From positions 467,578 through 531,577 of the forward strand of contig JADJPW010000004.1 of assembly GCA_016713035.1 (NCBI GenBank): DNA of 64,000 nt. The letters are read 5' to 3'. The notes beneath the pieces were generated by a model. That model was given only the letters and a program-made list of their open reading frames with translations. It had not been told where the DNA came from and did no database searches. Shown here piece by piece: positions 44,931-64,000 of the stretch (within the stretch, counting starts at the first letter, position 1; the number at the start of each line of letters is the position of its first letter). The translations under genes and the position numbers were made by a program. The stretch is from Verrucomicrobiaceae bacterium (GTDB taxonomy: Bacteria; Verrucomicrobiota; Verrucomicrobiia; Verrucomicrobiales; Verrucomicrobiaceae).

Positions 44931-44951
44931 TCGCTCATCCTATCCAGGTCT

Positions 44952-45000
44952 GTCAGCAGCAGATCAAGCATACGCTGTCGATTTGTCAGCAAACGGTAAG
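44952..45000 (-). promoter_or_regulatory. Conserved box copy A (upstream of the metallophosphoesterase)
   Basis: Minus strand CTTACCGTTTGCTGACAAAT (45000-44981), with a further CTGAC 33 nt downstream. Confidence 0.7.
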
Positions 45001-45118
45001 TGTAGCGCCTCACTCCCACGTCCAAATCGAACCAGATCCCACCGAATCGAACAAGCAATGCAGCCAAACAGGTCCGCTGGCGAGAAAATCGCCATGCACA
45101 CACGTTTGTTGTCGCCCC

Positions 45119-46318
45119 ATGAAATCCCTGTCTGTCCTTTACCTCCTGCTGAGCTCGTTTCTCAGCGCCCAGACGACCTACGATCCCGCGAAATTACCGA
45201 AGGGACATGATTACTATGAACTGCGAGGCGGCTTGGCGAACTGCCAGCGCAAATTCTCGCAGGAAAAGAGCGGTCGGGTGATTTTCCTCGGTGGGTCCAT
45301 CACGGCAGGCGGAGCCTGGCGGCAGCACACCTGCGACTACCTCACCAGAAAATTCCCAGACACGAAATTCGATTTCATCAACGCTGGCATCGGCTCGATG
45401 GGCTCTGTGCCACATGCGTTCCGACTGGAGCGCGATGTGCTGTCAAAAGGGCCGGTCGATCTGCTCTTTGTCGAAGCGGCGGTGAACGACAGCTCGAACA
45501 TCCCCACCCTACCCGATCAGATGCTGCGCGGCATGGAGGGCGTGGTGCGCCACATGCGCAGTGTCAGCCCACTCACCGACATCGTGCAGCTCCACTTTGT
45601 CATGCCACCGCACATGGACGACTACCATAAGGGCAAGGTGCCCACCTCCATCGCACAGCATGAAAAAGTGGCCGTGGCGTATGAGAATCCATCGCTGAAT
45701 CTCTCACTCGAAGTCACCGACCGCATCGACGCAGGAGAATTCACCTGGGACAGGGACTTTAAAGGCCTGCATCCCTCCGCCTTTGGTCATCAGCTCTACG
45801 CCAACAGCGTCGCCCGCATGCTCGATGCCGCTTTTGCCAAACCGCTGGCCGATGCCGCAAAACCGCACGCTCTGCCAGCCATGATCGATGCGCAAAGCTA
45901 TGCCAAAGGCCGCCTCGGCAACATCGCGGAGGCAAAGAACCTCCAAGGATTCACGCTGGAGCCCGCGTGGAGGCCCACGGATAAAAAAGGCACGCGAGCT
46001 GGTTTTGTCGATGTGCCCGCTCTTGTCGCTACGCAGTCTGGCGCAGCGTTTGAGTTCAGCTTCACCGGCACTGGCTGCGGTCTCTTCATCGCCGCTGGGC
46101 CAGATGCTGGGATCATCGAGTGCAGCATCGATGGCGGCGAGTTTCGGCAATCCAATACCTTCACGCAGTGGAGCAGTGGCTTGCATCTACCCTGGGCACT
46201 CATCCTAGACGACAGCCTCCCACCTGGCAGCCACATGGCAAAGGTCCGTATCATCGCGCCAACCGATGCCAGATCCACCGGCCATGCGCTGCGTGTGTTT
46301 CATCTGCTACTCAACTAA
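45119..46318 (+). CDS. SGNH/GDSL hydrolase family protein
   Basis: FLGGSIT, NAGIG, EAAVND and LHP blocks. Confidence 0.85.
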   Translation: MKSLSVLYLLLSSFLSAQTTYDPAKLPKGHDYYELRGGLANCQRKFSQEKSGRVIFLGGSITAGGAWRQHTCDYLTRKFPDTKFDFINAGIGSMGSVPHAFRLERDVLSKGPVDLLFVEAAVNDSSNIPTLPDQMLRGMEGVVRHMRSVSPLTDIVQLHFVMPPHMDDYHKGKVPTSIAQHEKVAVAYENPSLNLSLEVTDRIDAGEFTWDRDFKGLHPSAFGHQLYANSVARMLDAAFAKPLADAAKPHALPAMIDAQSYAKGRLGNIAEAKNLQGFTLEPAWRPTDKKGTRAGFVDVPALVATQSGAAFEFSFTGTGCGLFIAAGPDAGIIECSIDGGEFRQSNTFTQWSSGLHLPWALILDDSLPPGSHMAKVRIIAPTDARSTGHALRVFHLLLN

Positions 46319-46327
46319 TGCTCCCCA

Positions 46328-48992
46328 ATGCTCCGCGCTCTCCTTCTCGCCATTTTCACTGCTGAATCGCTCCTCGCTGCCGATCCGGCGATGCCAGAAA
46401 AACATCGTGCCCTTTTCCAAGAGCACTGCGTGAGCTGCCATGGGCCGGAAAAGCAGAAAGGAAAGTTCCGCGTCGATGATCTGCCGGTAGCGATCACGAA
46501 TGTCGAAATCGCCGAAAAGTGGCAGAAGGTGCTCAATGCGATGAATTCGGGCGATATGCCGCCAGAAGACGAGAAACAGCCCTCGAGTGCTGCAAAGGCG
46601 GATTTCCTCGATGATCTGGCGAATGTGATGGTCGCGGCCCGAAGGACGCTGGGCGATCAAAAGGGCGTGATCACGATGCGGCGGCTGAATCGTCGCGAAT
46701 ACAAAAACACGCTGCGGGAACTGCTCGGCGTGGAGATCAATGTGGCGGAGCTGCCGCCAGATGGTGGCTCTGGGGCCTTTGATACCGTAGGCTCGAACCT
46801 TTTCATGTCGGCAAACCAGATCGAGCAGTATCAGGCGCTCGGTCGCGAGGCGCTGGAGGAGGCTTTTGCGTGGCAAACGGCGGCGAGTGTCACAAAGAAG
46901 CTGCACTACGAGGCCGAAACGACGACGCCGAAGGTGAAAGACTTCGTGAAGTATCAAATCGATGCCCGCGAGCGTGCGCAGAAGTGGGTGAAGGCAGTCG
47001 ATGAGGCCATGGCGAAGCCGGAGAACAAGGAGATCGTCGCGAAGATCCGCGAGGAGGTGAAAAATAGCGAATCACGCCTCCGCCGCGAGTGGGCACGCAT
47101 CCCTGGTGCCCCGAATCCGCGCACGTTTGGCTTTGATAAGAAAGGCGAGAACGATGCCGATCTCGCGAATGATTCGCTCGGAGCGGGCTGGTTGAAGTAT
47201 CACGAGTATTACACGCAGATGCCGGATGTGGATCGCGGGGCCTACCTCGGCACGCAGACGCGACATCCAGCGGAGCTGAACGTGAACTACATCGAGCTGC
47301 TGGTGCCTTTTGACTGGCCGGTGGGAGATTACATCGTCCGCGTGCGAGCAGCGGCCGTGAAGGATACACCTGCAGAGCGTCGCTTCCTCGACTTCGGCAT
47401 CCATGCCCGCACAGGCAAGGTGCTGAACACTTACGAGATCACCGGGACCATCGAGCAACCTCAGACCATCGAGATTCCGCTCTCCCTGACGCGTGGCAAC
47501 CTGACTCGAGAGAACCGCTCGCTTTTCTTCCGCGAGAAAGGCAGTTGGGACACCAACGAAGAAGGCAATCGCAAGCGTGCCGAAGCCGTGAAACGCAACG
47601 GCATCGGCCCCGAGCCTGGCGCTATGGGTGGACTGGATCGAAGTAGAGCGCGTGCCGAATGCCACCAAGCCCGTGCCGCCCGGTTTTGCCGCCCTGAAGC
47701 TGCCGCTCGATGACAAATCGCCCGCACCCGCCGCTACTGAGCTCCGCGCTGCCTTCGAGCGCTTCGCCACCGAGGCCTTTCGCGGCACCACGCCGCCGTC
47801 AGACTATGTGGATCGCTTGATGAGCCTTTACGACGTGCGCCGCAAAGCCGGTGACAAGCCCGTGGCCGCGCTGAAGGACACACTCGCGGTCGTTTTGGCC
47901 TCGCCGATGTTTCTCTACCTCGCGGAGCCTTCGCCCGATGACAAACGTAGGCCGCTCACCGCGCCCGAACTCGCCACACGGCTCTCGTATTTCCTCTGGA
48001 GTGCTCCGCCAGATACCGAGCTGCGTAAAAGCGATCTCTCGAAGCCCGAAGTGCTCGCCGCTCAAACCGAGCGCTTGCTCAATGATCCGCGCTCGGAGGG
48101 CTTTTTGACGGCCTTTGTCCATCAATGGCTCGGCCTGGATCGCATCGACTTCTTTGAGGTGAATCGCGCGCTGTATCCGCGTTTTGACTCCGGCACGAAG
48201 GTCGCGGCCAAAGGCGAGATCCATGAGACCATCGCGCACATCTTGAAGCACAACGCCAGCCTGCGTGATCTTTTGAAAAGCGACTACGTCGTCATCAATC
48301 GCGTGCTCGCTCACTACTACGGCATCCCCGGCGTGAAGGGCGAAGGCTACGAGAAAGTGTCGCTGCCGAAGGACTCGCCGCGCGGCGGCCTGCTGGGCAT
48401 GGCAGCCATTCATTTCATGGGCGGCAATGGCGAACGCACCAGCCCCGTCGAGCGCGGCGCCTGGGTACTGCGCAAGCTCCTGCACGACCCGCCGCCGCCC
48501 GCTCCTGCAAACGTGCCTGCCATCACACGCCTCGCGGGCAAAGTGCTCACCACGCACGAGAGACTCCTCGCGCATCAGGAGGACCCGCAGTGCGCTAGTT
48601 GCCATCGCAAAATCGACCCCATCGGCTTTGGCCTCGAAAACTTCGACGCCGCCGGCCAATGGCGCACCGAAGACAGCTACACCGCCCTCGACGCCAACGG
48701 CAAACCCGACCCCAAGAGCAAGAAGACCTGGACCATCGACTCCGCCGCGGCCTTCCACAAAGGCCCCGCGTTTAAAGACTACTTCGAGCTGCGAAACATC
48801 ATCGCCAGCAAGTCCGACGCCTTCGCCCGCAGCTTCAGTGAAGCCTTGATCGAGTTCGCTCTGGGAAGACCGCTCGGCTTTCGCGATGAGCCGCTGGTGG
48901 ATGATATGTTAGCGAAGGCCGGGAAGAAGAAACTCGCTATGCGGGAGTTCATCCATGCGCTTGTCAGCAGTTACGAGTTCAGGACAAAGTAA
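46328..48992 (+). CDS. Planctomycete cytochrome c + DUF1587/DUF1592/DUF1588/DUF1585 protein, frameshift near 47620
   Basis: [33 protein letters not shown] and [19 protein letters not shown]. Confidence 0.9.
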
Positions 48993-49141
48993 GCTCACCG
49001 AGCCTAGCTGCCTCTGATGAATCATGCCTGGTTAGAAAGCGCCGTAGTGTCAGCATGCACTGTCTGGCCTTGCAGAAACTCCCGCTCCGCATCGCACGGG
49101 GCCAGACCAGCGCCTCATGCTCGGCGTGCTGGTTCATGGGG

Positions 49142-49594
49142 TTATGCCTCAGCAGGCGGTCCGCCTTCGACGAGCATCGCGAGATGCTGCAGCGACTCCT
49201 GCCAGCCGAGGTAGCACATCTCTGCCGGGATCACTTCGGGAACGCCGGCCTGCGTGACGCTGAGCTCGGTGCCGCAGGAGACGGCTTTGAGCTTCACGGT
49301 GACTTCGATGGTGCCGGGCAGGTTCGGGTCATCAAAGACATCGGTGTAGCGGAGGAGTTCGTTCGGCACGAGTTCGAGGTATTCGCCTCCAAAAGAATGC
49401 GTGTGGCCGCTGCTGAACTGGGTGAAGGCCATCTTGAAAGTGCCGCCGACTTTTGGCTCGAGATGGAAGACTTTGCACAGAAAGCCATTCGGCGGCAGCC
49501 AGCGAGAAAGAGCATCGGGATCGAGGAAGGCTTTGTAAACGATCTCGGGCTTCGCTTTGAGCACGCGATGAAGGGTGATGGTGTGGCTGGGCAT
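49142..49594 (-). CDS. SRPBCC/AHSA1 family protein
   Basis: LHRVLKAKPEIVYKAFLDPDA, GEYLELVPNE and CYLGWQESL; start inferred. Confidence 0.88.
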   Translation of the reverse strand: MPSHTITLHRVLKAKPEIVYKAFLDPDALSRWLPPNGFLCKVFHLEPKVGGTFKMAFTQFSSGHTHSFGGEYLELVPNELLRYTDVFDDPNLPGTIEVTVKLKAVSCGTELSVTQAGVPEVIPAEMCYLGWQESLQHLAMLVEGGPPAEA

Positions 49595-49634
49595 GGTTAT
49601 TTGGAGAGCAGGATGCAGTCTTTCGGTTCCGTGT

Positions 49635-50027
49635 TCATGGCTGGTGACGCAGGATTTTTTCCAAGGCCTTTCCTTTGGCCAGTTCATCCATGAGTTTGTC
49701 GAGATAGCGCAGATCACGCATCAGCGGGTCAGCGATTTCTTCCACTCTCACGCCGCAGACGCTACCCGTGATCAAACTGCGCTGCGGGTTCATTTGCGGA
49801 GCTTGGGCGAAAAAAGTCTCAAAGTCACTCTGCGCGGCTAGCACTGCATCAAGCTGCTGCGGGCTGTAGCCGGTGAGCCAGCGGATGATCGTGTCCACCT
49901 CCGCTTTGGTGCGCCCCTTCCTCTCCGCCTTGGCGATGTAGAGCGGATACACGCTCGCAAAGCTGGTGGAAAAGATGCGGTGCCTTCCGCCGCTGGCGGT
50001 GGAGGATGCAGTGGATGGCTTTTTCAT
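49635..50027 (-). CDS. DUF2200 family protein
   Basis: [36 protein letters not shown] and RYLDKL.DELAKGK. Confidence 0.85.
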
Positions 50028-50031
50028 GGCT

Positions 50032-50565
50032 TCACTTTGGCGTGGCGACGAGCTTTGCCATCTCGGCGAGACCTTTTTCAAACTCGGTGCCGCACATGGA
50101 CTCGCAGTCCATGAAGAGGCTCACGAGCTTGGGCATGAGGCCTTCGTTTTTGCCATACATGGCCCAGGTGACGGTGGTTTGGCCGGCATCGGCCTTGAAG
50201 AGGTAATCCACGGTGCTGACGCCCTCCATCGGCTCCAGCCAGTCCATGCGCAGGCGGATGAGTTCGTTCGGTTTGCTCTCGGTGATGGTGGCCTTGCCCT
50301 TGCCGGTCATTTTGCCCTCCCAAGTCGAGGCGGAGCCGACGCCAGTTTCAGGCCCGAGATATTCTACCTTCGAGCCGGGGTCCATTTTTAGCCAGGGATT
50401 GAACTCGTTGAACTTTTTGTGGCTATTGAACCAGACAAACACCGCCTCCGGCGGAGCTGCGACGGTGATACTGCGCTCGACGCGGAAATCTGGCGATTTC
50501 AGCAAGGCGGTGGCGATGAGGCCGGCGATGAGCACAACTAGGACGATGAGGATCTTCTTGAGCAT
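50032..50565 (-). CDS. SRPBCC (polyketide cyclase 2-like) membrane-anchored protein
   Basis: [14 protein letters not shown]...NPW...GVGS and FEKGLA. Confidence 0.85.
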
Positions 50566-50589
50566 GATAGTGGGTGGGTTGGGTGTGAG

Positions 50590-51120
50590 CTATTTCCGCG
50601 TGAAGATGACTGGCGGTCCGCAGGGGGCGCTTTTGCCGTCTTTCCAAGACACGCCTTCGAGTTTGAAGTGGTTCGCATCAATGAAGGTGTAGGTGGCACC
50701 GTGCATGTGCATGTCTTTCTGCACATTCAGACCGGGCGTCGGAGCGAGATCAAAGGTGAGCGAGTCCGCGGTCTGCTTCGCTAGCTTCATGCGCGGCTGG
50801 TTTCGCAGCATGCAGTAATGCGTCATGGTGAGCTTGCCATTCACATCGTGATACACGCTGAGCATCTCCATCGGAGTGCCCGCAGCGAAGCGCTCCTCAA
50901 TAACCGAATCGCCCGCGATAAGGCGGAACTCGGTATTCATCACACCCATCTCAGGCGATTCGCCCGACCATTTGCCGACGAGTGATTTCATGCGTTCAAA
51001 CGCTGTGGAGCCTTTGTAAGGCGGCATCTCGGCACAGGTAGCGTGTTTCGTCTGGCCGGACTGGCAGGACGTGAGAACCGCCAAAGCGGTTAGGGTGAGG
51101 AAGAGAGAGTGTGTTAACAT
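50590..51120 (-). CDS. Hypothetical lipoprotein
   Basis: Lipobox LTSC; MTHYCMLRNQPRM motif. Confidence 0.7.
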   Translation of the reverse strand: MLTHSLFLTLTALAVLTSCQSGQTKHATCAEMPPYKGSTAFERMKSLVGKWSGESPEMGVMNTEFRLIAGDSVIEERFAAGTPMEMLSVYHDVNGKLTMTHYCMLRNQPRMKLAKQTADSLTFDLAPTPGLNVQKDMHMHGATYTFIDANHFKLEGVSWKDGKSAPCGPPVIFTRK

Positions 51121-51470
51121 GTTAACGATGCGGTTGGGATGTATTTGGGTACAAGCAGAACATGATGAAATGACTACCAGTCACAGCATGGACGAACGAT
51201 AAAACACCGCGAGGACAGAAAAGTGAAAATATAACCTTACCACAAGTAGGCTGAAGAGGATCGATCGTGTAGCTCGCGATGGCCTGAATGTTCTTGTTCC
51301 GCCAGATTGAGGCCAAATCGCAAAGCCAGGCATTTTCTAGCCAGATCTGAGCGTGATTGTGGGCTGCACCATGTGCAGCGGACAAGCCCCTGAAGAGTGG
51401 GTATCAGCAAGGCGCAAGTATCCGGCAAGGATTGCCTCACGATGGAGGTATTGATCAAAGCCCAGCCCCC

Positions 51471-52757
51471 ATGAAAACCCGCCGCCACTTTCTCCAGTCT
51501 AAAACTGCGCTCATTGCTTTGCCCGCTTTGGAGTCGCTGGGCTTTCGTCGTTTTGCCTCGGCGGCTGCCTTATCGGCTCCGCCAAAGCGTTTGGTGTTCC
51601 TAGGCTTTGGCTGGGGCATCACGACGGAGACGTGGTTTCCGGACAGCAAGCAGACGGGGAAGGATTACACGCTGCCGGAGGGCCTAAAGCCGCTGGCGAG
51701 GCACAAGGCGGACTTTTCCATCGTACAGGGGCTTTGGAACAAATACTCGAACGAAGGCCACTGGGGCAGCACGATGTGGCTCACGGGCGCGAACCGCTTC
51801 GCGGAGCCTGGGCAGACGTTTCACAACAGCATCTCGGCGGATCAGGTCGCTGCGGCGAAGCTGGGCATGGAGACGCGTTTTGCTTCTCTTCAGCTCAATG
51901 GCAGCGAGAACGCGGAGGCCTCGGGACATGGGCCGGGGCTTTCGATGGCTTGGGATGTGAGCGGCAAACCCATCGGCGGTCACAAAGGCCCGGTGGAGGC
52001 GTTTCATCGGCTGTTTTCCAAGGACACGACGCCCATCGAGCAGCAGAAGGCGATGCTGGCGCAGAAGCGCAGCGTGCTGGACACGGTGATGGAGAACGCG
52101 AAGGCGATGCAGCGTGGCCTTGGCAAAAACGACAAGGCGAAGCTCGACGAATACTTCCAGGGCATCCGCGACATCGAGACGCGGCTCGCGAAGGACGAGC
52201 AATGGATCGGCGTGCCGCAGCCGAAGGCGCCGATCCCTCAGCCGCAGGAAGGCCTGGCGGGCAAAGAAGAGATCAAAATCATGTATGACATCATCGTCGC
52301 CGCGATGCAGACGGACAGCACCCGCGTGCTGACCTACCGCCAGCCGGTGAGTACGCTGCTGACGAGCATCGGCATCAAAGTGGCCCCGCATGACATGAGT
52401 CACTATCACTCGACCATGGGCGAAAAGCTCGCCGCTTCGCAGCAGCGCGATCTGGTGCAGAGCGAGCTGCTCGCTGGGCTCCTCGACAAGCTCAAAGCCA
52501 CCAAGGAAGCCGATGGCAGCCGCCTCTTTGATCACGTCGCCCTCGCCTACGGCAGCAACATCCGCACGGAGCACAATCTCGACAACTGCCCCACGCTGCT
52601 CACCGGCGGCGGCGCGGGCATCAAGCTCGGACACAACATCGTGGCACCGAAAGACACGCCACTGTGCAACACTTGGCTCACTCTGCTGCATGGCATCGGC
52701 GTGAATGCCGAGCGGCATGGCGATAGCTCCGGCGTGCTGAAGGAGATCGTGGCGTGA
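51471..52757 (+). CDS. DUF1552 (HXXSHH) domain protein, Tat-like signal
   Basis: TRRHFL, ISADQVAA and HDMSHY; usual partner of DUF1592 genes. Confidence 0.9.
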   Translation: MKTRRHFLQSKTALIALPALESLGFRRFASAAALSAPPKRLVFLGFGWGITTETWFPDSKQTGKDYTLPEGLKPLARHKADFSIVQGLWNKYSNEGHWGSTMWLTGANRFAEPGQTFHNSISADQVAAAKLGMETRFASLQLNGSENAEASGHGPGLSMAWDVSGKPIGGHKGPVEAFHRLFSKDTTPIEQQKAMLAQKRSVLDTVMENAKAMQRGLGKNDKAKLDEYFQGIRDIETRLAKDEQWIGVPQPKAPIPQPQEGLAGKEEIKIMYDIIVAAMQTDSTRVLTYRQPVSTLLTSIGIKVAPHDMSHYHSTMGEKLAASQQRDLVQSELLAGLLDKLKATKEADGSRLFDHVALAYGSNIRTEHNLDNCPTLLTGGGAGIKLGHNIVAPKDTPLCNTWLTLLHGIGVNAERHGDSSGVLKEIVA

Positions 52758-52764
52758 CGCTTGG

Positions 52765-54189
52765 TCACTTCATTGGCTTCTTCCCACCTTTGGCCCCGCC
52801 CTTCCTCGCAGGCTCTTTAGCAGGGTCATAGTTGGGATTCGGCTTCGGCATTTCAGCGCCGACTTCCTTTAAGTAGTCTGCGAGTCGCCTGGAGAGGCGT
52901 GCAGTGACATCCGGGCTCCTGGCAGCGAGATCACTCCTCTCCGCCAGATCCGCATCGAGATCGAAGAGTCTATCCTCCCCAGTCTCGTAGAAGTGGATCA
53001 GCTTCATGTTTCCACTGAGGATCGCGCTGTGCGGCGTATCACCCTGATAGTGCGGGAAGTGAAACACCATTTCCTCGCGAGCACGCTTTACCGGTTCTTG
53101 GGCACCCCGCAGCAAGGGCGAAAAATCGCCACCATCGAGATTCGTGGGTAGCGCCACTTTCACACCGGCTAGCTTGCAGAGTGTCGGTAGAAAATCGTAA
53201 CCCACGACTCGTTGATGGCACCACGAGTTCGCCGCGATGCCTGGGCCACGGATGATTAAGGGCACACGGATACCGCCCTCCGACACGCCGCCTTTCCCTG
53301 CACTGAGTGGCCGCACTTGCTCACGCCCACCGCCGCCTTTCCCCTTTCCTTTGCCGCCGCCTCCAGCGCCGCCGCCACCCCCACCACCGCCGTTGTCAGA
53401 CATGTAGATAATGTAGGTGTTTCTGCTGAGGCCGAGCTTTTCGACAGCAGACAGCAAGCGTCCCACGCCCGTGTCGAGATCCGCTGTGATCGCGGCGACA
53501 TCCACATTGCTGTGCATGCGACCGGGCGTCTGTTTTTCGTAAAAGGCCCGCGTGGCCTTGAGCGCGTTCTCCGGCAGATGCAGTGCGTAGTAGGACATCT
53601 GCATGTAGAAGGGCTTCCGTGCATCGACTTGCTTCTTCATGAAGGCCTCCGCTCGCTCATTCATGCCAAAGATGTCCACCGGGTTCGGATCGACATATTG
53701 ATCCGCATCGCGATTGCCCGTATCTCCATCACTCACGTCGTAACCATGCGCCTGCGGCCCACCACCACCGAGATGCCACTTGCCAAAATGCGCCGTCGCA
53801 TAGCCCGCCGAATGCAGTAACTCCGCCACAGTGACTTCCTCGCTGCCAATATGCTTGCGAGAGGCTCCTTCGATCAAACGATGCCCTTCCTCTGCGGGTG
53901 CAGCCTTTGTCCAGCCCAGTGCCGCAGGATTCCGCCCTGTCTGCAAACTGATCCGCGTAGGCGAGCACACGGGAGCAGGCGCATACGCTGCGCTAAACCT
54001 CATGCCCTGTGCTGCGAGCATCTCCAGATTCGGCGTGCGGTAAAAATCGCTCTTCGAGTTCGGCAGATCAGGATGCATCTGCACGGACAGCCCCGTCCAG
54101 TCCTGGTCATCGGAGAGAATGAAGATGAAGTTTGGCGACTCTGCTGCGAATGAGCTCATCGCGACTAGGAGGAGAAGCAGGATTTTCAT
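52765..54189 (-). CDS. Arylsulfatase-A-like sulfatase with Gly/Lys-rich loop insertion
   Basis: SDDQ, CSPTRISL formylglycine motif, GKWHLG, SDNG and EGGIRVP; GGAGG RBS before ATG 54189. Confidence 0.93.
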   Translation of the reverse strand: MKILLLLLVAMSSFAAESPNFIFILSDDQDWTGLSVQMHPDLPNSKSDFYRTPNLEMLAAQGMRFSAAYAPAPVCSPTRISLQTGRNPAALGWTKAAPAEEGHRLIEGASRKHIGSEEVTVAELLHSAGYATAHFGKWHLGGGGPQAHGYDVSDGDTGNRDADQYVDPNPVDIFGMNERAEAFMKKQVDARKPFYMQMSYYALHLPENALKATRAFYEKQTPGRMHSNVDVAAITADLDTGVGRLLSAVEKLGLSRNTYIIYMSDNGGGGGGGGAGGGGKGKGKGGGGREQVRPLSAGKGGVSEGGIRVPLIIRGPGIAANSWCHQRVVGYDFLPTLCKLAGVKVALPTNLDGGDFSPLLRGAQEPVKRAREEMVFHFPHYQGDTPHSAILSGNMKLIHFYETGEDRLFDLDADLAERSDLAARSPDVTARLSRRLADYLKEVGAEMPKPNPNYDPAKEPARKGGAKGGKKPMK

Positions 54190-54211
54190 ATCCTCCATGA
54201 ACACTCTCCAC

Positions 54212-54260
54212 GTCAGGGTGGTATCACGGAATTCGAGTTCATTTGTCAGGATTGGGTCAA
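54212..54260 (-). promoter_or_regulatory. Conserved box copy B (upstream of the sulfatase)
   Basis: Minus strand TTGACCCAATCCTGACAAAT (54260-54241), with a further CTGAC 33 nt downstream. Confidence 0.78.
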
Positions 54261-54542
54261 TAGAAACGACGTCAATACGGTCTGAGGCATGATTCGACCG
54301 TTTCCGCCTTCGCCTTCGACCTCCCTAGTAGGTGCCGCGAGTAAGTTGCGACGTTTTGCCGCAAAAAGGTGTCTCTAAGTCGGCAAAAACAAGTTTATGG
54401 CCCGAGTTGACCTTCCACAGCTCATGCGCACATCCCAGTCCTCCCATCATATGATGTTTATCTCCCTTCGTCTCTTCCGCATTTTCCACCAGTCACGTAG
54501 CGCTTCATTTCACTGCGAAATTCCTATGAAAGGAGGTCGGCC

Positions 54543-55532
54543 ATGACCTCTGGTCTCATTGCCCTGCTAGATGATGTCACCGCACTGGCCAAGGTGGCCG
54601 CATCTTCCCTGGATGATGCTGGCGCGATGGCCGCGAAAGCTGGTGGAAAAGCTGCGGGCATCGTCATCGACGATGCCGCTGTCACACCACGATACGTCGT
54701 GGGCCTGAGTGCCGAGCGCGAATTGCCCATCATCGTGAAAATCGCCAAAGGCTCTCTGAAAAACAAGCTGCTCATCCTCCTGCCTGGAGCCCTGATCCTG
54801 AGCCTCGTGGCTCCGTGGATCATCACTCCGCTGCTGATGGCTGGAGGTGCGTTTTTATGCCTAGAGGGCTATCACAAGGTGGTCCAGATCATCCGTCCAG
54901 ACCATCATACCGAGGTGGATGAAGCAGAATCAGCCGCCCCGACCACTGCGGAGGAGCTGGAGGACGAACGCGTGACCAGCGCCATCCGCACGGACTTCAT
55001 CCTCTCTGCCGAGATCATGGCTATCACGCTCGCATCTGTCACCAGCTCGCCATTGTGGATGCAGGCGTTTGTTCTCGCCGTGGTGGGTCTGGGCATGACA
55101 TTGCTGGTCTATGGAGTCGTCGCACTGATCGTGAAAGCGGATGATGCGGGGGTAGCGCTGGCACGCTCTGGCAGTGGGATCGTTCGCAGCATCGGACGCG
55201 GAATGGTCGCCGGTATGCCAGTGTTTCTCAAAGTGCTGAGTTTCGTCGGTATGATCGCTATGCTTTGGGTAGGTGGTGGCATCCTCATCCATGGTCTGCA
55301 TCAGATGGGTGTACACGGGCCTGAGGAGGCGGTGCATCACTCGGCGGAGGCTTTTGCTGGATTGTTGCCAGCTTTGCACGGCTTTCTGGCGTGGCTGGGG
55401 CAGGCGGGCATCGCATCCATCCTCGGTGTGATCGTCGGAGCCCTGGTCGATCCATTTGTGAATCATGTGATGCTGCCTCTCATCGCTCGCTGGAGGGGCA
55501 AGATAAGATCGTTGCCTCGCCACAGAGCTTGA
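54543..55532 (+). CDS. DUF808 (YedI-like) inner membrane protein
   Basis: GLIALLDD, KAAGIVIDDAAVTPRYV and RTDFILSAEIM. Confidence 0.9.
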   Translation: MTSGLIALLDDVTALAKVAASSLDDAGAMAAKAGGKAAGIVIDDAAVTPRYVVGLSAERELPIIVKIAKGSLKNKLLILLPGALILSLVAPWIITPLLMAGGAFLCLEGYHKVVQIIRPDHHTEVDEAESAAPTTAEELEDERVTSAIRTDFILSAEIMAITLASVTSSPLWMQAFVLAVVGLGMTLLVYGVVALIVKADDAGVALARSGSGIVRSIGRGMVAGMPVFLKVLSFVGMIAMLWVGGGILIHGLHQMGVHGPEEAVHHSAEAFAGLLPALHGFLAWLGQAGIASILGVIVGALVDPFVNHVMLPLIARWRGKIRSLPRHRA

Positions 55533-55563
55533 CCAAAGGCACATAAGCTGTCCCCCTCTGCCC

Positions 55564-57143
55564 ATGACTGACACTCCTCCTGCTACCACCTCGTTTTCAC
55601 CGCTCCTCCTCCGTGGAGGTGTGCTGGCACTCATCGGCGCAGCTTTTGCCTATCTTGTCTCGGAGAAGGCAAAAATGGGTGTCGTACCAGGTTGCATTGT
55701 TGGAGGGGCAATTTTCGGAATCGGAATGTTTGCGCTCATCAAGCTCGCGGAGCCCAGCGTGAACTTTGGATTACCTTTGGTTTGAAGATGGTAATCGTGA
55801 CCGCCTACAAGTTGCTCAACGTGGTGTATCACAAATTGGGCAATCAAAGACCTTCATTTGAGTGATGCCAGGGGCAGGCGGTCTTTGCTGCCTGGGGCAC
55901 ATTCATCATGGTTGCCACGTTGCTATCTGGCTCTCTTGCTGATGCGATTGGAATGCGACGCACTCTGATGATCGGCATGCTGCTTTCCGTCGTGTTCCCG
56001 GACCGTGATGTTTGCCAGCACCAACGTATGGGTCGCTCTTGTGTTTGGCATGGTGCCAGCAGCCATCGGCGAGGCATTTTGCACGCCAGTGCTCGTGGCG
56101 GCCACGCGTAAATTCACCACGCCGGAACAGCGCTCCGTGGCGTTCTCGATCTTCTACGCGATCATGAACGCTGGTTTCCTCGTTGCTTATTTCTTTCGCG
56201 ATTCCGTCTTCTCCGCTCTGCCGCCCGATCAAGCTGGAATGGTGAGTTTTACTGGAGTGCCATTTAGCCAAGAACGGGTGCTCATCTTCGTGAGTATTGC
56301 AGTGGAGTTGCTCATGTTGCCTCTGTTGTGGCTGATGCGAGCCGACCATGATATGACCGCTGCAACTAAAAGCAGTGGCCAAGACGGTGGGTTCTGGCGA
56401 AATTTGGCACCACCATCCGAACACAGCGAGTGAAACCGGTAAACAACTCATGGGATTGGTGCGGCACCCTGGCTTCGCGCGGCTATTGACTTTCCTAGCC
56501 ATGATCGGCCTTCTCAAGATCGTTTTTGGAACGATGGACAGCGTGCTTCCCACTTTCCCGGAACGCGAACTGGAGTGGAAGGCGGTGATCGAGCAGGGCG
56601 CTTCAATGCGGTCAACAGTGTGCTCATTCTAGTCCTAGCACCTCTGATCGGTATTCTCACGCGGAAGCATTCAGCCTATTCGATGGTTATTTTCGGCGGA
56701 TTTGTCACGGCGGTCTCATTTATATTCATGGCGCTCCCGGGCAGTTTTTTCAAGGGCTAGCCGATGGTGCCTTGGGGACGCGGTGGGGCATGGTTACCTG
56801 GATTTTCAGGGGCAAATTCATCCGCTTACATCGTGATGATTGTTCTCTGGCAGGTGGTTTTCTCAATCGGGGAGGCACTCTATTCGCCGCGTGTCTATGA
56901 GTATGCCGCCTCCATAGCGCCCAAAGGCCAAGAGGCCTCATTCGCATCATTGTCCTGCATTCCGCTGCTGATGAGCAAGATGGCCACGGGTGCACTTTTG
57001 CGGAATCATGGCTGACTGCCTGGATACAGGCCCTGCGAACGGCCCACGACATGGATGATCGTCGGTGGAGCATTGTCGGCTGGCTCCGCTGCTGCTTTTT
57101 CTCCGCCCCTCCTTCCATTAATGAAGAAGGGAAGGCTAGCTGA
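55564..57143 (+). pseudogene. MFS transporter (POT/MFS_1-like) broken into at least 6 reading-frame segments
   Basis: Fragments GSLADAIGMRRT, RSVAFSIFYAIMNAG, FSIGEALYSPR and APKGQEASF lie in successive frames; AT-richer than the host. Confidence 0.7.
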
Positions 57144-57238
57144 GTCGGGGCTGCGCCCCCATGTTGTCGCTCGCTTTAGTGTGGGGCAATGACCCGTGAA
57201 AGGCTCTACCAGCACTACTGGAATGCATCAGAGGACCA

Positions 57239-59915
57239 TCACTTCACTGGCACGCCGCTCACATCGAGATCGGGCTTCGTGTTCCATCTTGGCGTCCAGC
57301 CGGGTTTTTCGACCTTGGTGCGGAAGATGACGGTGTTGTCGAGGGCGATGTCGTCGCTCCAGATGAACTTGGCACCTTCGAAGTCGTTCTCGAAGTAGGG
57401 CTGTTTGGGATCGACTTCTTCGACGGTGTATTCCTTGGCGTTTTTCCAGGTGCTGTCGTCGAAGTCCACGGTCCACCAATTGGCAGGAAGAGGCTCTTGG
57501 ATGACTTTTGGGTTCGCGGTGTCGGCGTTGATGGGGCCGTGGAAGAAGTTTTGGCCTTCCAGGTGGCGTTGGTGACGGTGCCGTCGGCGAATTGATGCAC
57601 AGGCCGGCGTCGCCGATGCTGGTGCCGTATTCCATGCCGGTCTTCGGATCGGCGTTGTCCTTCGCAAGCACGGCGATGGTCATGGGATACTCGGGCAGGA
57701 AATCGACGCTGACGACATTGTGCGGCGTGAACTGAATGCTGTCCACGGCGACGAGGCGGCCGTTGACGTAGAGCATGAACCAATTGTCGGCATAGACGTT
57801 GAGTTTGATCGTGTCGGCGATGCTGGGCTTCACGAGGCCGGGAGGGCCACCTTTGCCTTTTCCTTTGCCGCCCCCTTTTTGGGTTCCTGGCCCGCATTGG
57901 CTCTCGGCGGGGACGGAATGACCCTGCGCCTGATCCACTGCTGTGAACGACACGCAGAGATGAACTCGCGAGCACCTTGTCCTTCATCGCGGCGATGAGC
58001 TCTTCACGACCGGGAGTGTTATTCACCTTCAGCGGGCCAGAGAGGGCGTACATCGTGATCACGTAGGTCTTTGCGCCAGGCCCCTTGGAGTGCGGGGGTT
58101 CGTAGCCCGCGTCACCTTTGAAGCCAGTGCCTAGCTTGCCAATGCGTTGCGAGTCCTTTGGCAGGCTTGCGACTTCGCTGGGGATGTCATAGATGGTCCA
58201 ATACCACTTCTTGTCTCCATCAGGCGTCACATGATCCATGATCAAGGCGAAGCTCTGTGTGCCAGAGGGTGCCCCGATCCACTCGAGAGGTGGGCTGATG
58301 CCGACTCCGTCTCCAGTGAACTCAATGGGCAGATTTTTGAGGTCTTCCACCACGGGGCTATTGAGCATGAACTTGCCATCGCTGCTGCGAGGCTGATCCG
58401 GCAGTGCCACGAACGTTTCCTGCTTGCCTCCACGACCTCCACCTTCACCGCGCTTCATCTCTTCGCGTGCTGGAGGTTCATTGTCACGGGGTCGAGGGGC
58501 GTCACCGGCAGGTGCGTTGCCAGCGAGTTCATCGAGTTCCGGGGTGTCGAGTTTGCCATCGCGATTGTGATCGAAGGTGTTGAACTGCTCTTTGGCCTTC
58601 GCCATCGCATCGGGACGCCATCGCCATTCACATCGAGGATGCCTTCCACCTCGGCCTGCGGACGCGGCGGGCGACCGCCTTCTTCACCGGGACGGGGCGG
58701 CGGTTCATCACCGCGACGCATCTCGCCTTCGCGACCACCTTTGCCCTGTCCCTTGCCTTTTCCTTTGCCCTTCATGCCTTCAGCACCGCCGCCGGGCGGA
58801 CGATCACCACCACCGCCACCTTGGCGACGTGCGGTGTAAACTTCATCCGCCGTGCCTTCGCGACCATTGTCGAAGTGAAAGGGATAGGTGCCATCGGCCT
58901 TGATCGAGTAGCTGACGCTGCGTTTGTCGCCATTCACCTCGTAGCTGAGCTTGTAGCTGTCCTTGCCGGTGCTTTCGAAGGCGGTGATCTTGGCACCGCG
59001 AAGCGCCGTGAGGGCCTCACGCACACCTTGCGCACGTGGTTGCGGATCCACTTGCTCGCCCGCCTCCACGACCTCGCCGTGGAAGCCACCGAAGACATAC
59101 GGATACTTGTTCGAAGCATGATAATGATAGCCGCCGGGCGATTCGTGGCCGTGGCACTCGTCGAGGTTCGCCACGGGCGAGCCATCCGGCTCCGTGAGGC
59201 CATAGATCGGATAGCCATCGAGCGCATAAGCCACCGGCATGCCTTTGCCCACCTGCGCCTGCAAATGCAGCGGCGCGATGTGGTAGTGATAATCATCCGC
59301 GCGTCCGCAATGACCGCCCCACTCGTCGAGCTCGCCGATTTCATAGCTGATCTCACCGCGATTGTTCTGCGGGTTGAAGATCGGGATGCCATTCACCGCC
59401 AAAGCGATCGCGCCGCGCAGGAAGCGACCTTTGATCATGGCGGGTTCCTTGGCTGGCACCGGCTTCAGCGGAATGCGCCAGGCATTGTCATCGAAATACG
59501 GCTGCGGCAGCGGCACCTGCTGCTGCCACGCGGTGATGCCGACCATCATGTTGTGATCCGGCATGCCATTCGAGCCCACATAGAGAAACTCACCATCCGC
59601 ACGCAGATCGAGCTTCGTGAAGGGCAGAAAGGCCTTCGCGGTCTGCGGGGCATTCGCCGCGTTCGCGACTGCCGCGGCGGCGAGTTGGACGACCGAGGCC
59701 GTGGAGGCGAGAAGAGGAGCGCGGAGACTCTTCTCCGCTTCATTCCTCTTCGCGGCTTCGCCGCCATTTTCAGAAGATGCGGGCAGGAGTGCCCGCGCTC
59801 CCTTCTGCATCCACTCCTCGAGAATATGCGCCCGCAGCGCCTCGCGGTCGGTGGTGGCCAGATCATGCGCGGCGAGGCTTGTCGCGAATAGAAGAAGGGC
59901 AGAGAGCGTTTTCAT
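57239..59915 (-). CDS. Secreted multidomain YHYH + EF-hand + YbhB/YbcL (PEBP) + unknown C-terminal domain protein (about 890 aa if 4 frameshifts are corrected)
   Basis: Signal peptide at 59915; DYHYH and GYHYH; DVNGDG/DHNRDGKLD EF-loops; SPPLEW...FALIMD and YEPPHS PEBP motifs; YADNWF...FDDSTW C-domain. Breaks near 58605, 57878, 57590 and 57553. Confidence 0.75.
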
Positions 59916-59940
59916 AGCACCGCCTACTAACTCTCGACGC

Positions 59941-59989
59941 GTCAAAACGGCTTCAGCGATTCTCGGGAGATTTGTCAGGATTGCGTCAA
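59941..59989 (-). promoter_or_regulatory. Conserved box copy C (upstream of the YHYH fusion)
   Basis: Minus strand TTGACGCAATCCTGACAAAT (59989-59970), with a further TTGAC 33 nt downstream. Confidence 0.78.
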
Positions 59990-60060
59990 GGCAGCCGCAG
60001 GCAGGCATTCGCGCCCACTTCTGCAAAGCGCTGCCCGTGCGACGCGTCTTAATCAAACGC

Positions 60061-61264
60061 ATGCACCTCACCCGCCGCCATTTTCTCCAAACGACCAGCC
60101 TCGCGCTCGCCTCGGCTCACACGCACGTTTTGGCCGCGGAGGACCCGCTCATCGAGTCCATCGAGAAAGTCGTGCTGAAGACCCCCGCGCTGCCCAAAGG
60201 CACCTGGTTCCATCCGCGAGCCTGCATGGTCGGCAAGAAGGCCTTCATGACCACGCAGCCCATCGTGGGCTCCGATCACTTCGGGCATGTGCACTGGACC
60301 ACCTCCGATGACCTCGGCCAAACCTGGAGCGAGTTCATGCCCGCGCCGCCGCTGGGTTGGGAAAAGCTGCCCGATGGCTTGAATGAGGCCGTTTGCGACA
60401 TCACGCCCGAGTTTCATCCGCAGACCGGCAGCGTGCTCGCGCTCGGTCACAATGTCTTCTACAAGGACAAAGGCTTTGATCGCAACCAGCCGCCGCGCTG
60501 GCCGATCTACGCCGTGTGGAAAGACGGCACGTGGGGGCCGCGTCGCAAGCTCGTGTGGGACGACCCGCGTGCCACCGAGATCTACTCAAACAACTGCGGC
60601 CAGCGCCACATGCTGCCGGATGGCGATGTGCTCATGAGCTTCACCTTCGGCGTCAAAGGCCAGACGCGCTCCGTGTGCGGCGTGCGCTGCTCCTTTGATG
60701 GCGACCAGCTCCTCATCAAACAAACCGGCAACGCGCTTACGAACAGCGTCGGCCGCGGACTGCTCGAGCCTTCGCTCACGCGGTTCGGAGGCCGTTTTTA
60801 CCTCACCATCCGCGCCGAGGATCGCAAAGGCTACGTCGCCGTGAGCGATGACGGCCTGCACTACGAGCCGCAGCAGCCATGGAGCTGGGACGACGGCACG
60901 CCGCTCATGACGAACAGCACGCAGCAGCACTGGCTCACGCATTCCGACGGCCTCTTCCTCGTCTATACGCGACGCGATCCCACCAACGAAAAGGTCATCC
61001 GCTGGCGTGCCCCGCTCTGGGTGGCGCAGGTGGACCCGGAAAACGCTCCGCCTCATCCGCGCCACCGAGCGCGTCGTGCTCCCGCTCATCGGCGATGGCG
61101 TGAACGCCGCCGACCTCGTCGCCTTCAACGGCAACTTCGGCGTCTGCAATGCCAGCCCCGCCGAATCCTGGATCACCGACGGCTCCTGGTGCCCCAAAAC
61201 CAACACCGGCGAACTCAACCTCGCCCGCGTGAAGTGGCGGAAGGCGAATGCGTTGGTGGCATAG
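60061..61264 (+). CDS. Tat-exported BNR/sialidase-like beta-propeller, frameshift near 61050
   Basis: LTRRHFL Tat motif, Asp-box SDDLGQTW, GLLEPSL and VSDDGLHY. Confidence 0.8.
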
Positions 61265-61314
61265 CCAAGGCAGCACAACGCCGTTCAGATTCGTGCTTCT
61301 CAAGCTGTGCATAA

Positions 61315-61334
61315 ATTTGTCGGGATTGTGTAAA
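61315..61334 (-). promoter_or_regulatory. Conserved box copy D (upstream of the response regulator)
   Basis: Minus strand TTTACACAATCCCGACAAAT, 17/20 identical to copy C. Confidence 0.68.
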
Positions 61335-61372
61335 GAGCCGTGCAGACAGGAAGGTCTGCATCACACTCCGCC

Positions 61373-62070
61373 ATGCGCCTCCTCATCATCGACGACGACA
61401 CCGAGCTCTGCCAGCTCGTGGCCGATTACCTAACGCCGATGGGCTTCCAGGTCGAAATGGAGCACGATGGCGAGCGTGGAGCTGACCGCGCCACCTCCGA
61501 GGGCTGGGCGGCCATCATCCTCGATGTCATGATGCCCGGCTGCGATGGCTTTGAAGTCCTCCGCCGCATCCGTGCGAAGTCCAAAGTGCCCGTCATGATG
61601 CTCACCGGCCGCGGCGAGGAGGTGGACCGCATCGTCGGCCTCGAACTCGGTGCAGACGACTACCTGCCGAAGACTTTTTCCTCCCGCGAGCTCCTCGCCC
61701 GCCTCCGCGCCCTGCTGCGCCGCACCGGCTGGATCGCGGAGACTGCTCCTCAGGCTCCTATCAAAGAAATCGTCATCGGCGAACTGCGCATCAATCCCGA
61801 AACGCATGATGTCGTCCTCGGCGACCAGCCCGTGCAGCTCACGCCGGCTGAGTTCGGCCTTCTTTTGTCACTCGCGAAGGCCCACGGTCGTGTCAAAACA
61901 CGCGAGCAGCTCATCGAAGAGGTCGCCGACCGCGAGTGGGATGTCTTTGACCGCGCCATCGACATGCACATCTCCACGCTACGCAAAAACTCGGCGATGA
62001 CCCCAAGGAGCCGCGCTACATCAAAACCGTGCGCGGCTACGGCTATCAACTCGTCACTCCCGCCCGATGA
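61373..62070 (+). CDS. OmpR/PhoB-family (CpxR-like) response regulator, frameshift near 61988
   Basis: IDDD, LDVMMPG, GADDYLPK and DRAIDMHISTLR, then YIKTVRGYGY in the shifted frame; ATGA coupling to the kinase. Confidence 0.92.
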
Positions 62071-63478
62071 GCCGCGTGCGCCTACCGCTTTACGGCAAGA
62101 TCCTCTCGTGGTTCGCCCTGAACCTCGCGGTGCTGGCGCTGCTCTTCTTTTTCTTCCTCAAGGCGCAGTTTCGCCTCGGTCTCGACTGGATGCTCTCCGG
62201 CGAGCCCGGTGATCGCATCGCCGCCATCGGCGAGACCATCACCTTTGAGTTCTCCCGCCTCGCCGAGAGCGAATGGCCCGCTCATTTGAGCGACTACGAT
62301 CAAAAACACGGCGTCACCTTCGGCCTTTTGACGGACGCGGCGAGCAGCTCCATGGCAAACCGCTCACGCCACCGCCCGAGGTCATGCCGCGACTCATCGA
62401 CCGCCGTCCACTCGGAGAAAAACTCGCCCGCCGCGCACCCGGCCCTGTCTCGAAACGTCCTGCCGATGCACCGCCGAAGCCGCGCTTCATGATGCGTGCT
62501 GGCGATCCCGCTCGCTACTGGGCTGGTGTGCATCTCGACCTCGTCGCGCAGGATGGTCGCTCACTCACGCTCGTCATGGTCTCTGACAGCATCAGCGGCG
62601 GCGGCCTCTTTTTCGATCTGCGCCCGTGGCTCTGGCTCGCTGCTGCCGCACTCCTCATCTCCGCACTCCATGTGGATGCCCTTCGTGCGCGGCATCACCG
62701 GCTTCATCGGCACGCTCAACCACGCCGCAGGCCGCATCGCGCATGGCAAATTCGACGAGCGCATCGAAAAACAACGCAGCGATGAACTCGGCGAGCTCTC
62801 CACCTCCGTGAACACCATGGCCGCGCAGCTCGGCGACTACATGCGCGAGCAAAAACGCATCACCGCCGATGTCGCACACGAGCTATGCAGCCCCATCGCC
62901 CGCATGCAGATGGCGCTCGGCGTGGTGGAGCAGCGCAGCACGCCCGATCAATCCACCTACCTGCAAAACTCGACCGCGAACTCCAGCACATGGCCAAACT
63001 CGTCGAAGAGGTCCTCGCCTTCTCCAAAGCGGAAACCATCCCCGGCCGCGGAACGCCCGAAGACCTCGATTTGCGCGAATTGCTCCAAAACATCCTCGCC
63101 CGCGAAGCGCCCGAAAACGGCATCAAACTCGAGATCGGCGACTTCAAGCTCCACAGCCTCCGAAACGCCCTGGATCGCGGCATCGGCAACGTCGTGCGCA
63201 ACGCCATCCGCTACGCCAAAAACATCGAAATCACCGCCAATGCTGAAAACGGCCACGTGACACTCCAAATCGCAGATCGTGGCCCCGGAGTGCCCGAAGA
63301 GGCCATTGCACGCCTCTTTGAGCCCTTTTTCCGCCCTGAGGCGGCCCGTGGCCGCAACACAGGTGGCAGCGGCCTCGGCCTCGCGATCACGAAGCGCTGC
63401 ATCGAAGCCTGCGGTGGCACCGTGACGGCACGGAATCGCGAGGGCGGCGGGCTGGTGGTGGACATCACTCTGCCATGA
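62067..63478 (+). CDS. HAMP sensor histidine kinase (CpxA-like), about 3 apparent frameshifts
   Basis: HAMP RSDELGEL, H-box DVAHELCSPIAR, N-box NVVRNAIRY, DRGPG, FEPFFR and GLGLAI. Confidence 0.9.
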
Positions 63479-63538
63479 GATGAGCGGCTGGCAAAAAAGC
63501 CGTCGATCCGTTACTTCGCGGCTGGAACTTGTGAGGGA

Positions 63539-64000
63539 TCATACTTCGCCCCCCTTGGACACCTGGATCAGCGTCATGCGCACCTTCGTGGGAAAGAACT
63601 TCTCGGGATCAGGGCGCTTGTGGACGTGGAGATTTTTGTCGTCTTTGAGGACGAGATGCATCTCCTTGATGCCCTGGCTCCAGATGATGTCGTTGTTCTG
63701 CCAGAACTTCGTCATATCGAGATCCTTTTCGATCACGCCCGTCTTGGAATACGCCCCCGTGCCGATGCAGCCGTAGCCGTGGTTTTGGCCTTTGTAAGGG
63801 ATGTAGCACACGCTCCACGACGTGGGCTGATCCCCCGCCGGTTTTTCGAGCACCTCCAGCCGCAGATGCGCCGTGCCGTTGCGGTAATCCACCGGTGTCG
63901 TCCAGTCCTTCGGACGCTGCGGATTGAGTCGGTCGTCTTTGAGGTAGTAGTGCGACTGACTGGGCTTCGAATTAAGCGCATCTTCCTGCGTGAAGGTGAA
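63539..64000 (-). CDS. Hypothetical protein, 5' end outside the window
   Basis: Open frame to the window edge with host-like codon bias. Confidence 0.6.
   Translation of the reverse strand, partial: FTFTQEDALNSKPSQSHYYLKDDRLNPQRPKDWTTPVDYRNGTAHLRLEVLEKPAGDQPTSWSVCYIPYKGQNHGYGCIGTGAYSKTGVIEKDLDMTKFWQNNDIIWSQGIKEMHLVLKDDKNLHVHKRPDPEKFFPTKVRMTLIQVSKGGEV

Follow-up and report, generated by a model that had tools for sequence, protein, structure and literature searches.

A 20-bp direct-repeat box as the predicted operator of a CpxR-like two-component system beside genes for secreted YHYH proteins and ester hydrolases in Prosthecobacter

The window analysed here is a stretch of 64,000 nucleotides from a Verrucomicrobiaceae bacterium (assembly GCA_016713035.1, 6.24 Mb in 19 contigs with a G+C content of 59%), corresponding to positions 467578–531577 of contig JADJPW010000004.1 (hereafter C4). 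The genus considered throughout is Prosthecobacter in the GTDB sense, which takes in the cultured Brevifollis gellanilyticus NBRC 108608. Three genes for secreted proteins lie on the minus strand of the window. They encode a metallophosphoesterase of 449 amino acids (43581–44930; Pfam Metallophos, E 5.5e-11), a sulfatase of 474 amino acids (52765–54189; Pfam Sulfatase, E 1.3e-38) and a fusion of YHYH, EF-hand and PEBP domains identified with Pfam (57239–59915), which is frameshift-broken here and intact on another contig of the assembly, C5, where 906 amino acids are called. The plus strand carries a two-component system formed by a response regulator of the OmpR/PhoB family (61373–62070) and a sensor histidine kinase (62067–63478) whose periplasmic domain has about 150 amino acids. 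A 20-bp box stands before each of the three secreted-protein genes and also beside the regulator, and the initial annotation of this DNA had proposed that the pair co-controls these genes through it.

The intact copy of the regulator on C5 contains a receiver domain (Pfam Response_reg, E 4.9e-25) and a winged-helix domain (Trans_reg_C, E 9.2e-27). The top NCBIfam matches were CpxR for the regulator (209.7 bits, cut-off 341) and CpxA for the kinase (180.7 bits, cut-off 486), and the alignment of the kinase to CpxA begins only at residue 183, from the HAMP domain onwards, the sensor domain not being aligned. The designation of the pair as CpxR/CpxA-like holds, as a consequence, for its layout and its best family match, but not at the level of the equivalog cut-offs. 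The three secreted-protein genes are monocistronic in this strain; for the metallophosphoesterase and the sulfatase the next gene downstream is convergent (a DUF1552 gene for the sulfatase), so that each box would drive a single gene here.

The box, YTKACNNNWTNCYGACAAAT, is present as four copies, all of them intergenic, on the minus strand and at the coordinates originally given. Box 1 (CTTACCGTTTGCTGACAAAT, 45000–44981; 23.8 bits), whose 11-bp units are CTTAC and CTGACAAAT, ends 50 nt before the metallophosphoesterase ATG at 44930. Box 2 (TTGACCCAATCCTGACAAAT, 54260–54241; 35.8 bits) ends 51 nt before the sulfatase ATG at 54189, and box 3 (TTGACGCAATCCTGACAAAT, 59989–59970; 34.3 bits) 54 nt before the ATG of the YHYH fusion at 59915; the distances of 51, 52 and 55 previously reported reflect no more than another way of counting the ends. 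Box 4 (TTTACACAATCCCGACAAAT, 61334–61315), predicted to be the regulator-proximal operator, has its end 38 nt from the regulator ATG at 61373. Its position just upstream of the regulator had been correctly described, but not its orientation: it is directed away from the regulator, towards the 3' end of a convergent BNR/TAT gene, and no gene follows it on its own strand in the window. At sites 1–3, the CTGAC of the box is followed at a distance of exactly 33 nt by a YTGAC (44956–44952, 54216–54212 and 59945–59941), and an NTGAW is located at +22. They form a proximal pair at box positions 34 and 45, also on the minus strand, which reads TTGAT and CTGAC at site 1 (44952–44967), GTGAT and CTGAC at site 2 (54212–54227), and CTGAA and TTGAC at site 3 (59941–59956). 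With up to three mismatches allowed, the 20-mer gave 3 matches within the window when 0.01 were expected, and the 9-mer CYGACAAAT gave 4 when 0.76 were expected. A further TTGAC was seen 15 nt before box 2, where a DUF808 gene (54543–55532, plus strand) is divergent from the sulfatase promoter.

When the whole assembly was scanned with a weight matrix, seven sites of at least 23.8 bits were identified, namely the four boxes of the window and three on C5, the next best site reaching 18.2 bits. The three sites of C5 are not independent genomic positions, as this contig is a version of the same locus. C5 spans 44.7 kb and, in reverse orientation, aligns collinearly with C4:522915–546123 at 90–97% identity (window 55338–64000 included), and its only segment without a C4 counterpart is C5 17307–38716 (21.4 kb). 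A true paralogous duplication was rejected, since everything outside these 21.4 kb is collinear with that C4 region; the simplest explanation is that C5 comes from a sister strain whose version of the locus was co-binned. The public runs containing this sequence were sludge or wastewater metagenomes or metatranscriptomes with relatives about 97% identical, from which it follows that the genome is a metagenome-assembled genome (MAG).

Box 4 sits at the junction of the 21.4-kb segment missing from the window. On C5, an identical box stands before a gene for a secreted YHYH plus Lcl_C protein, divergent from the regulator, at 54 nt from its ATG, and in other species too this box precedes a YHYH plus Lcl_C gene at that distance. 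Box 4 is probably the operator of such a divergent gene, lost in this strain. The regulon that had been regarded as dispersed is actually a compact local cluster which has been pulled apart in this genome. Besides the YHYH plus Lcl_C gene, the additional segment of C5 contains genes for a purple-acid-phosphatase-like phosphoesterase of 904 amino acids and a BNR_2 protein, an NTPase-like open reading frame (ORF) of 1373 amino acids, and a pair of 1.33-kb repeats with 98% identity (C5 23981–25314 and 28674–30006). A palindrome, TGCAGACA-N4-GGTCTGCA (61341–61360), lies between box 4 and the regulator ATG. A genome search with TGCAGACA-N4-TGTCTGCA found it confined to the window locus and C5, so that it was discarded as a genome-wide operator. 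At C5:17280–17345 and C5:32750–32812 the palindrome occurs in doubled form, as a hairpin whose stem measures 24 bp, and each hairpin is followed by a box; the second of these copies comes after the 904-amino-acid phosphoesterase gene and has no gene close downstream.

The regulator–kinase pairs of the window and C5 differ by six indels, every one a single-base change in homopolymer length. The kinase is broken three times in the window (62326, 62668 and 62965) and once on C5, and the window regulator is left without its C-terminal wing by the frameshift at 61985 (A5 here, A6 on C5). Single-base homopolymer indels were located at 61985, 62326, 62668, 62851, 62965 and 63549, as well as within 57239–59915 and near 61100 and 47650. 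They break the regulator, the kinase, the YHYH fusion and the BNR/TAT gene, and probably a PSCyt/PSD gene (46328–48992), and they cluster where a near-identical sister contig exists. These frameshifts are either two-strain consensus errors or real decay.

The association of the box with the regulator was then followed across the genus. The 13-mer AATCCYGACAAAT occurred 32 times in 41 relatives, as against once for its reversed control, and the 19-mer YTKACNNNWTNCYGACAAW 102 times in 61 genus genomes, as against 7 for the control, with one to four copies per genome clustered on one contig. Orthologues of the regulator with at least 83% identity were present in 20 of the 24 genus genomes sampled, and all 22 orthologue loci at this identity carried a box on the opposite strand, 38–96 bp upstream of the regulator ATG. 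Paralogues of about 60% identity had none (0 of 8), apart from one weak variant, TTTACACGATCTTAACAAAT. When loci were retrieved via the kinase, the same linkage was seen down to 51% kinase identity, and the one apparent exception carries the variant TTTAC-N6-TTGACA. The regulator-proximal box has been kept without a following target gene in the window and in the genomes G048, G010 and G070. This retention suggests autoregulation, and the regulator-proximal box probably serves this function also.

Some loci of the genus showed particular arrangements. In G022 (L037 5804 and L055) the gene found 169 nt beyond the regulator-proximal box is not a YHYH gene but encodes a BlaI/MecI-like repressor, judged by the look of its sequence only, and in G006 (L032 and L053) only a weak box of 15.8 bits is found at the corresponding place. 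Sequence divergence within the genus is much faster for the kinase than for the regulator. In a Prosthecobacter debontii MAG (L152), identity to the query is 37% for the kinase sensor domain (residues 35–190), 82% for the kinase core and 97% for the regulator, which points to a swapped sensor domain.

The 11-bp period of the box, which is also that of the Pho box, and the presence of phosphoesterases among the genes that it precedes raised the question of whether another factor encoded elsewhere, such as a true PhoB acting under phosphate starvation, could be the one that binds it. The local regulator scores 185 bits against PhoB, under the cut-off of 296 bits, and regulators with higher scores are encoded at C14:139785 and C2:442446, so that more PhoB-like candidates exist in this genome. 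However, the rest of the genome has no box, and hence none stands before phosphate-transport or other loci, whereas the box lies beside the regulator at all 22 orthologue loci and is absent where the regulator is absent. The Pho regulon was discarded for this reason and because the local regulator is not the best PhoB candidate, and control by a factor encoded elsewhere is, more generally, improbable.

About 100 distinct boxes were collected. Of these, 37 precede genes of the YHYH/EF-hand/PEBP type, 19 YHYH/Lcl_C genes, 10 orthologues of the phosphoesterase and 10 orthologues or homologues of the sulfatase, giving 76 sites in the four main families. In addition, a gene for a 2OG-Fe(II) oxygenase (198 amino acids, PF13640) is preceded by the regulator-proximal box TTTACYNGATGCTGACAAAK in six species (L033 9298–9990, from Brevifollis gellanilyticus, and loci L031, L036, L082, L094 and L104). 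An inverted GACAAAT was observed about 50 nt downstream of this box in five of the six species. The box 3 sequence stands before orthologues in more than 30 species, with unrelated upstream flanks, and phosphoesterase boxes with the GTTTG/GTTTC spacer of box 1 occur in at least nine other species, 50–52 nt before the ATG; boxes of orthologous sulfatases were also found in other species. Stand-alone copies of the phosphoesterase and sulfatase genes have their own box 50–52 nt before the ATG. In contrast, copies located directly behind a YHYH gene, as in the operon of YHYH, sulfatase and phosphoesterase genes in Brevifollis, lack a box in the 400 bp upstream, where even the highest scores are negative. 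This alternation between box and operon is the behaviour expected of a cis-element that would be needed once per transcription unit. The scan of the genome and its relatives found the box enriched and placed upstream of orthologues. With a box at every orthologue locus of the regulator, and target orthologues either boxed or in an operon behind a boxed YHYH gene, these sequence comparisons largely support the proposed co-control of secreted hydrolase and YHYH genes by the regulator–kinase pair.

These sites also bear on the origin of the box, as its copies might resemble each other by descent of duplicated promoter segments, or as a small mobile repeat, and not by selection for binding. Identical flanks are in fact shared by box 3 and its C5 copy, a palindrome-bearing flank is common to box 4, C5:17347 and C5:32817, and the two YHYH gene types are paralogues. 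However, the flanks of boxes 1, 2 and 3 are mutually unrelated, and the orthologous promoters of other species, whose sequences are scrambled ahead of the box, become conserved precisely from its first base onwards. Moreover, the distance between box and ATG is the same in families as unrelated as the phosphoesterase, the sulfatase and the 2OG oxygenase, and the genome has only seven copies. A common origin by duplication or transposition is, as a consequence, extremely unlikely to account for the likeness of the boxes.

The promoters of the four main families have a common geometry. The box consists of two 11-bp units, TTKAC-N6-CYGACAAW, with TTKAC at position 1 and CYGAC at position 12, and a weaker second pair at positions 34 (YTGAWG) and 45 (CTGACA) lies on the same helix face and is conserved over the 76 sites. 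The elements at +22 and +33 and the 11-bp phasing, which had first been noticed at sites 1–3, are real. The ATG falls at box position 71–76 in 60 of the 76 sites. At site 1, a -10-like TAGGAT (44937–44942, minus strand) is located 6 nt before the phosphoesterase ATG, which suggests a leaderless mRNA or one with a very short leader. A TAnnnT ending 4–9 nt before the ATG was present in 7 of the 10 phosphoesterase sites and in 13 of the 76 overall. Since the strict TAnnnT is mostly found at phosphoesterase genes, leaderless mRNA is put forward as a hypothesis only, and since it is rare outside this family an alternative layout stays, in which the box overlaps the -35 region and transcription starts near position 46 with a leader of about 25 nt. 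The TTGAC of the box was also considered as a -35 element with its -10 located 17 bp downstream, and this was ruled out as nothing is conserved there. Public RNA data were searched for transcription starts; the contigs were fragmentary, one run of raw reads gave 0 reads at 1% sampling, and no start was readable.

Conservation was found to extend beyond the genus. Homologues of the regulator with 52–60% identity were identified in Desulfobacterota, in Limisphaerales and in a Kiritimatiellia MAG. In 28 of 33 of them the motif TTTACA-N5-YTKAC (including TTTACA-N5-TTTACA) is found upstream of the regulator, mostly at about 100 bp and always in the divergent orientation, never the other; its density there is 3.5 per kb, compared with 0.10 per kb elsewhere in the same loci. 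A further T(T/A)(T/A)AC occurs at position 44–45 in 26 of 27 distant sites, which is the same geometry as in the window. The divergent gene of these lineages encodes a secreted protein of about 180 amino acids with similarity to the CpxP/Spy/ZraP type as represented by Pfam Metal_resist; the E-values are 1e-5 to 1e-6, and the scores fall slightly short of the gathering threshold. Read on the strand of the regulator, the ancestral box is GTAAA-N6-GTAAA. The published CpxR consensus is GTAAA-N(4-8)-GTAAA, which is reported to act in either orientation, and the CpxR site of mexA in P. aeruginosa is GTAAACCTAATGTAAA (PMC5063474). The ancestral form thus matches the CpxR consensus, and the box is a tandem direct repeat at helical-turn spacing, as the initial annotation had recognised. 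In the clade of the window the operator on the regulator strand is GTMAA-N6-GTCRG, with one half-site changed with respect to that consensus.

It was also considered whether the conserved 60-bp region could be the promoter of a sigma factor of the extracytoplasmic function (ECF) type, with TKAC and TGAC as its -35 and -10 elements and the two-component system linked to it by position only. The very constant distance between box and ATG would fit such a promoter, as would the fact that a sigma-70 -35/-10 pair with a 17-bp spacing is not readable at most sites. Nevertheless, no sigma factor gene was found among the tested ORFs at 40–64 kb of the window, nor any sigma or anti-sigma gene in the syntenic loci of relatives. 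In addition, the motif is composed of four phased direct repeats, and not of a bipartite -35/-10, it follows the lineage of the regulator across phyla and its ancestral form matches the CpxR consensus. Taken together, these data make an ECF promoter very improbable.

Comparison of both groups of operators revealed that the half-sites are YTGAC in Prosthecobacter and TTTAC in the distant homologues, the change affecting both the box and position 45. Since this change is parallel in the two places, one protein appears to read all the half-sites. The recognition helix of the regulator is RAIDMHISTLRKKL in the Prosthecobacter clade and RSVDVHISSLRRKL in the other clade, and we infer that this change may be linked to that of half-site specificity. 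A broader evolutionary account is possible, although we consider it doubtful. According to it, a CpxR-like lineage of Desulfobacterota and Verrucomicrobiota would have kept the tandem box and the half-site 33 nt on, and Prosthecobacter would have re-aimed it from a CpxP/ZraP-like protein to YHYH metalloproteins and ester hydrolases, with a parallel switch from TTTAC to YTGAC matching the change of the helix from RSVDVHISSLRRKL to RAIDMHISTLRKKL. If this were so, the regulon would serve in the periplasm, either in a metal-linked response or in the scavenging of esters, and its mRNAs would be leaderless.

Considering all these results, the 20-bp box is probably the high-affinity operator of the adjacent CpxR-like regulator of the OmpR family (61373–62070), which is paired with the kinase at 62067–63478; we give this reading a probability of about 0.8 on the sequence evidence. 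It is favoured because the box is confined to the locus, linked to the regulator in relatives and associated with recurrent targets, because its conservation is deep and its ancestral form matches the CpxR consensus, and because no sigma factor gene was found among the ORFs tested at 40–64 kb of the window. In the proposed mechanism, a dimer of the phosphorylated regulator would bind the box and a second dimer would join it at the proximal pair, beside or overlapping the -35 region. The weak promoter would then be activated, as with PhoB or CpxR, and the resulting mRNA would be leaderless or have a very short leader, the short distance between box and ATG leaving no more room.

Several points weigh against this proposal. 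The window regulator has no wing and its kinase is broken three times; if these lesions were real, the system would be dead in this strain. Only the phosphoesterase family has a clear canonical -10 hexamer ahead of the ATG, which weakens both the promoter layout and the idea of leaderless mRNAs, and the element at position 34 could be a -35 hexamer and not a half-site of the regulator. Finally, the cis linkage across genomes favours the regulator, yet it is also compatible with a second, unlinked factor.

The regulons of Verrucomicrobiota are almost uncharted, and the small regulon described here had not been reported before, although the design of the switch is itself ordinary. Its predicted target set comprises YHYH proteins, a sulfatase, a metallophosphoesterase and a 2OG oxygenase. 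The YHYH family (PF14240) is without a characterised member, and a 2026 preprint predicts for it only a three-histidine metal site. A sequence relative of YHYH was not found in the PDB, and the AlphaFold2 model of the domain, built on an alignment of 17 sequences, had a pLDDT of 46 and was unusable. MbnP is encoded in the assembly only at C1:347014, with neither a YHYH gene nor a homologue of the regulator nearby. The operator, the regulator and the compact target set would provide a first experimental handle on the YHYH family and, as the system is present in the cultured type strain Brevifollis gellanilyticus NBRC 108608, both YHYH function and the signal of the kinase are directly testable. 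The promoter geometry shared across phyla and the parallel switch of half-sites also constitute a natural case for studying the co-evolution of regulator and operator.

Finally, the system was compared with those known. It resembles the CpxRA system of E. coli in that a tandem-repeat operator separates the regulator–kinase operon from a divergently oriented secreted-protein gene, in the best NCBIfam matches of both proteins, and in that its distant homologues have a box of exactly GTAAA-N6-GTAAA together with a divergent gene similar to CpxP/Spy/ZraP. It differs from CpxRA in its scores, which are far under the equivalog cut-offs, in a kinase sensor domain that does not align to CpxA, in one half-site, which in Prosthecobacter is GTCRG and not GTAAA, in a divergent target that is a YHYH protein and not CpxP, and in a regulon of ester hydrolases and not of folding factors. 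As regards the phosphate regulators, the Pho box is composed of 11-bp units with CTGTCAT followed by an A/T-rich stretch, tandem boxes replacing the -35, and PhoP of B. subtilis recognises TT(A/T/C)ACA repeats. The box described here shares with the Pho box of PhoB the 11-bp direct-repeat units with an A/T-rich tail, the disposition of two pairs upstream of a weak promoter and the presence of secreted phosphoesterases among the targets. Unlike the PhoB system, its regulator is not a PhoB orthologue, no box precedes other loci of the genome, and one 11-bp unit between the two pairs is unoccupied.

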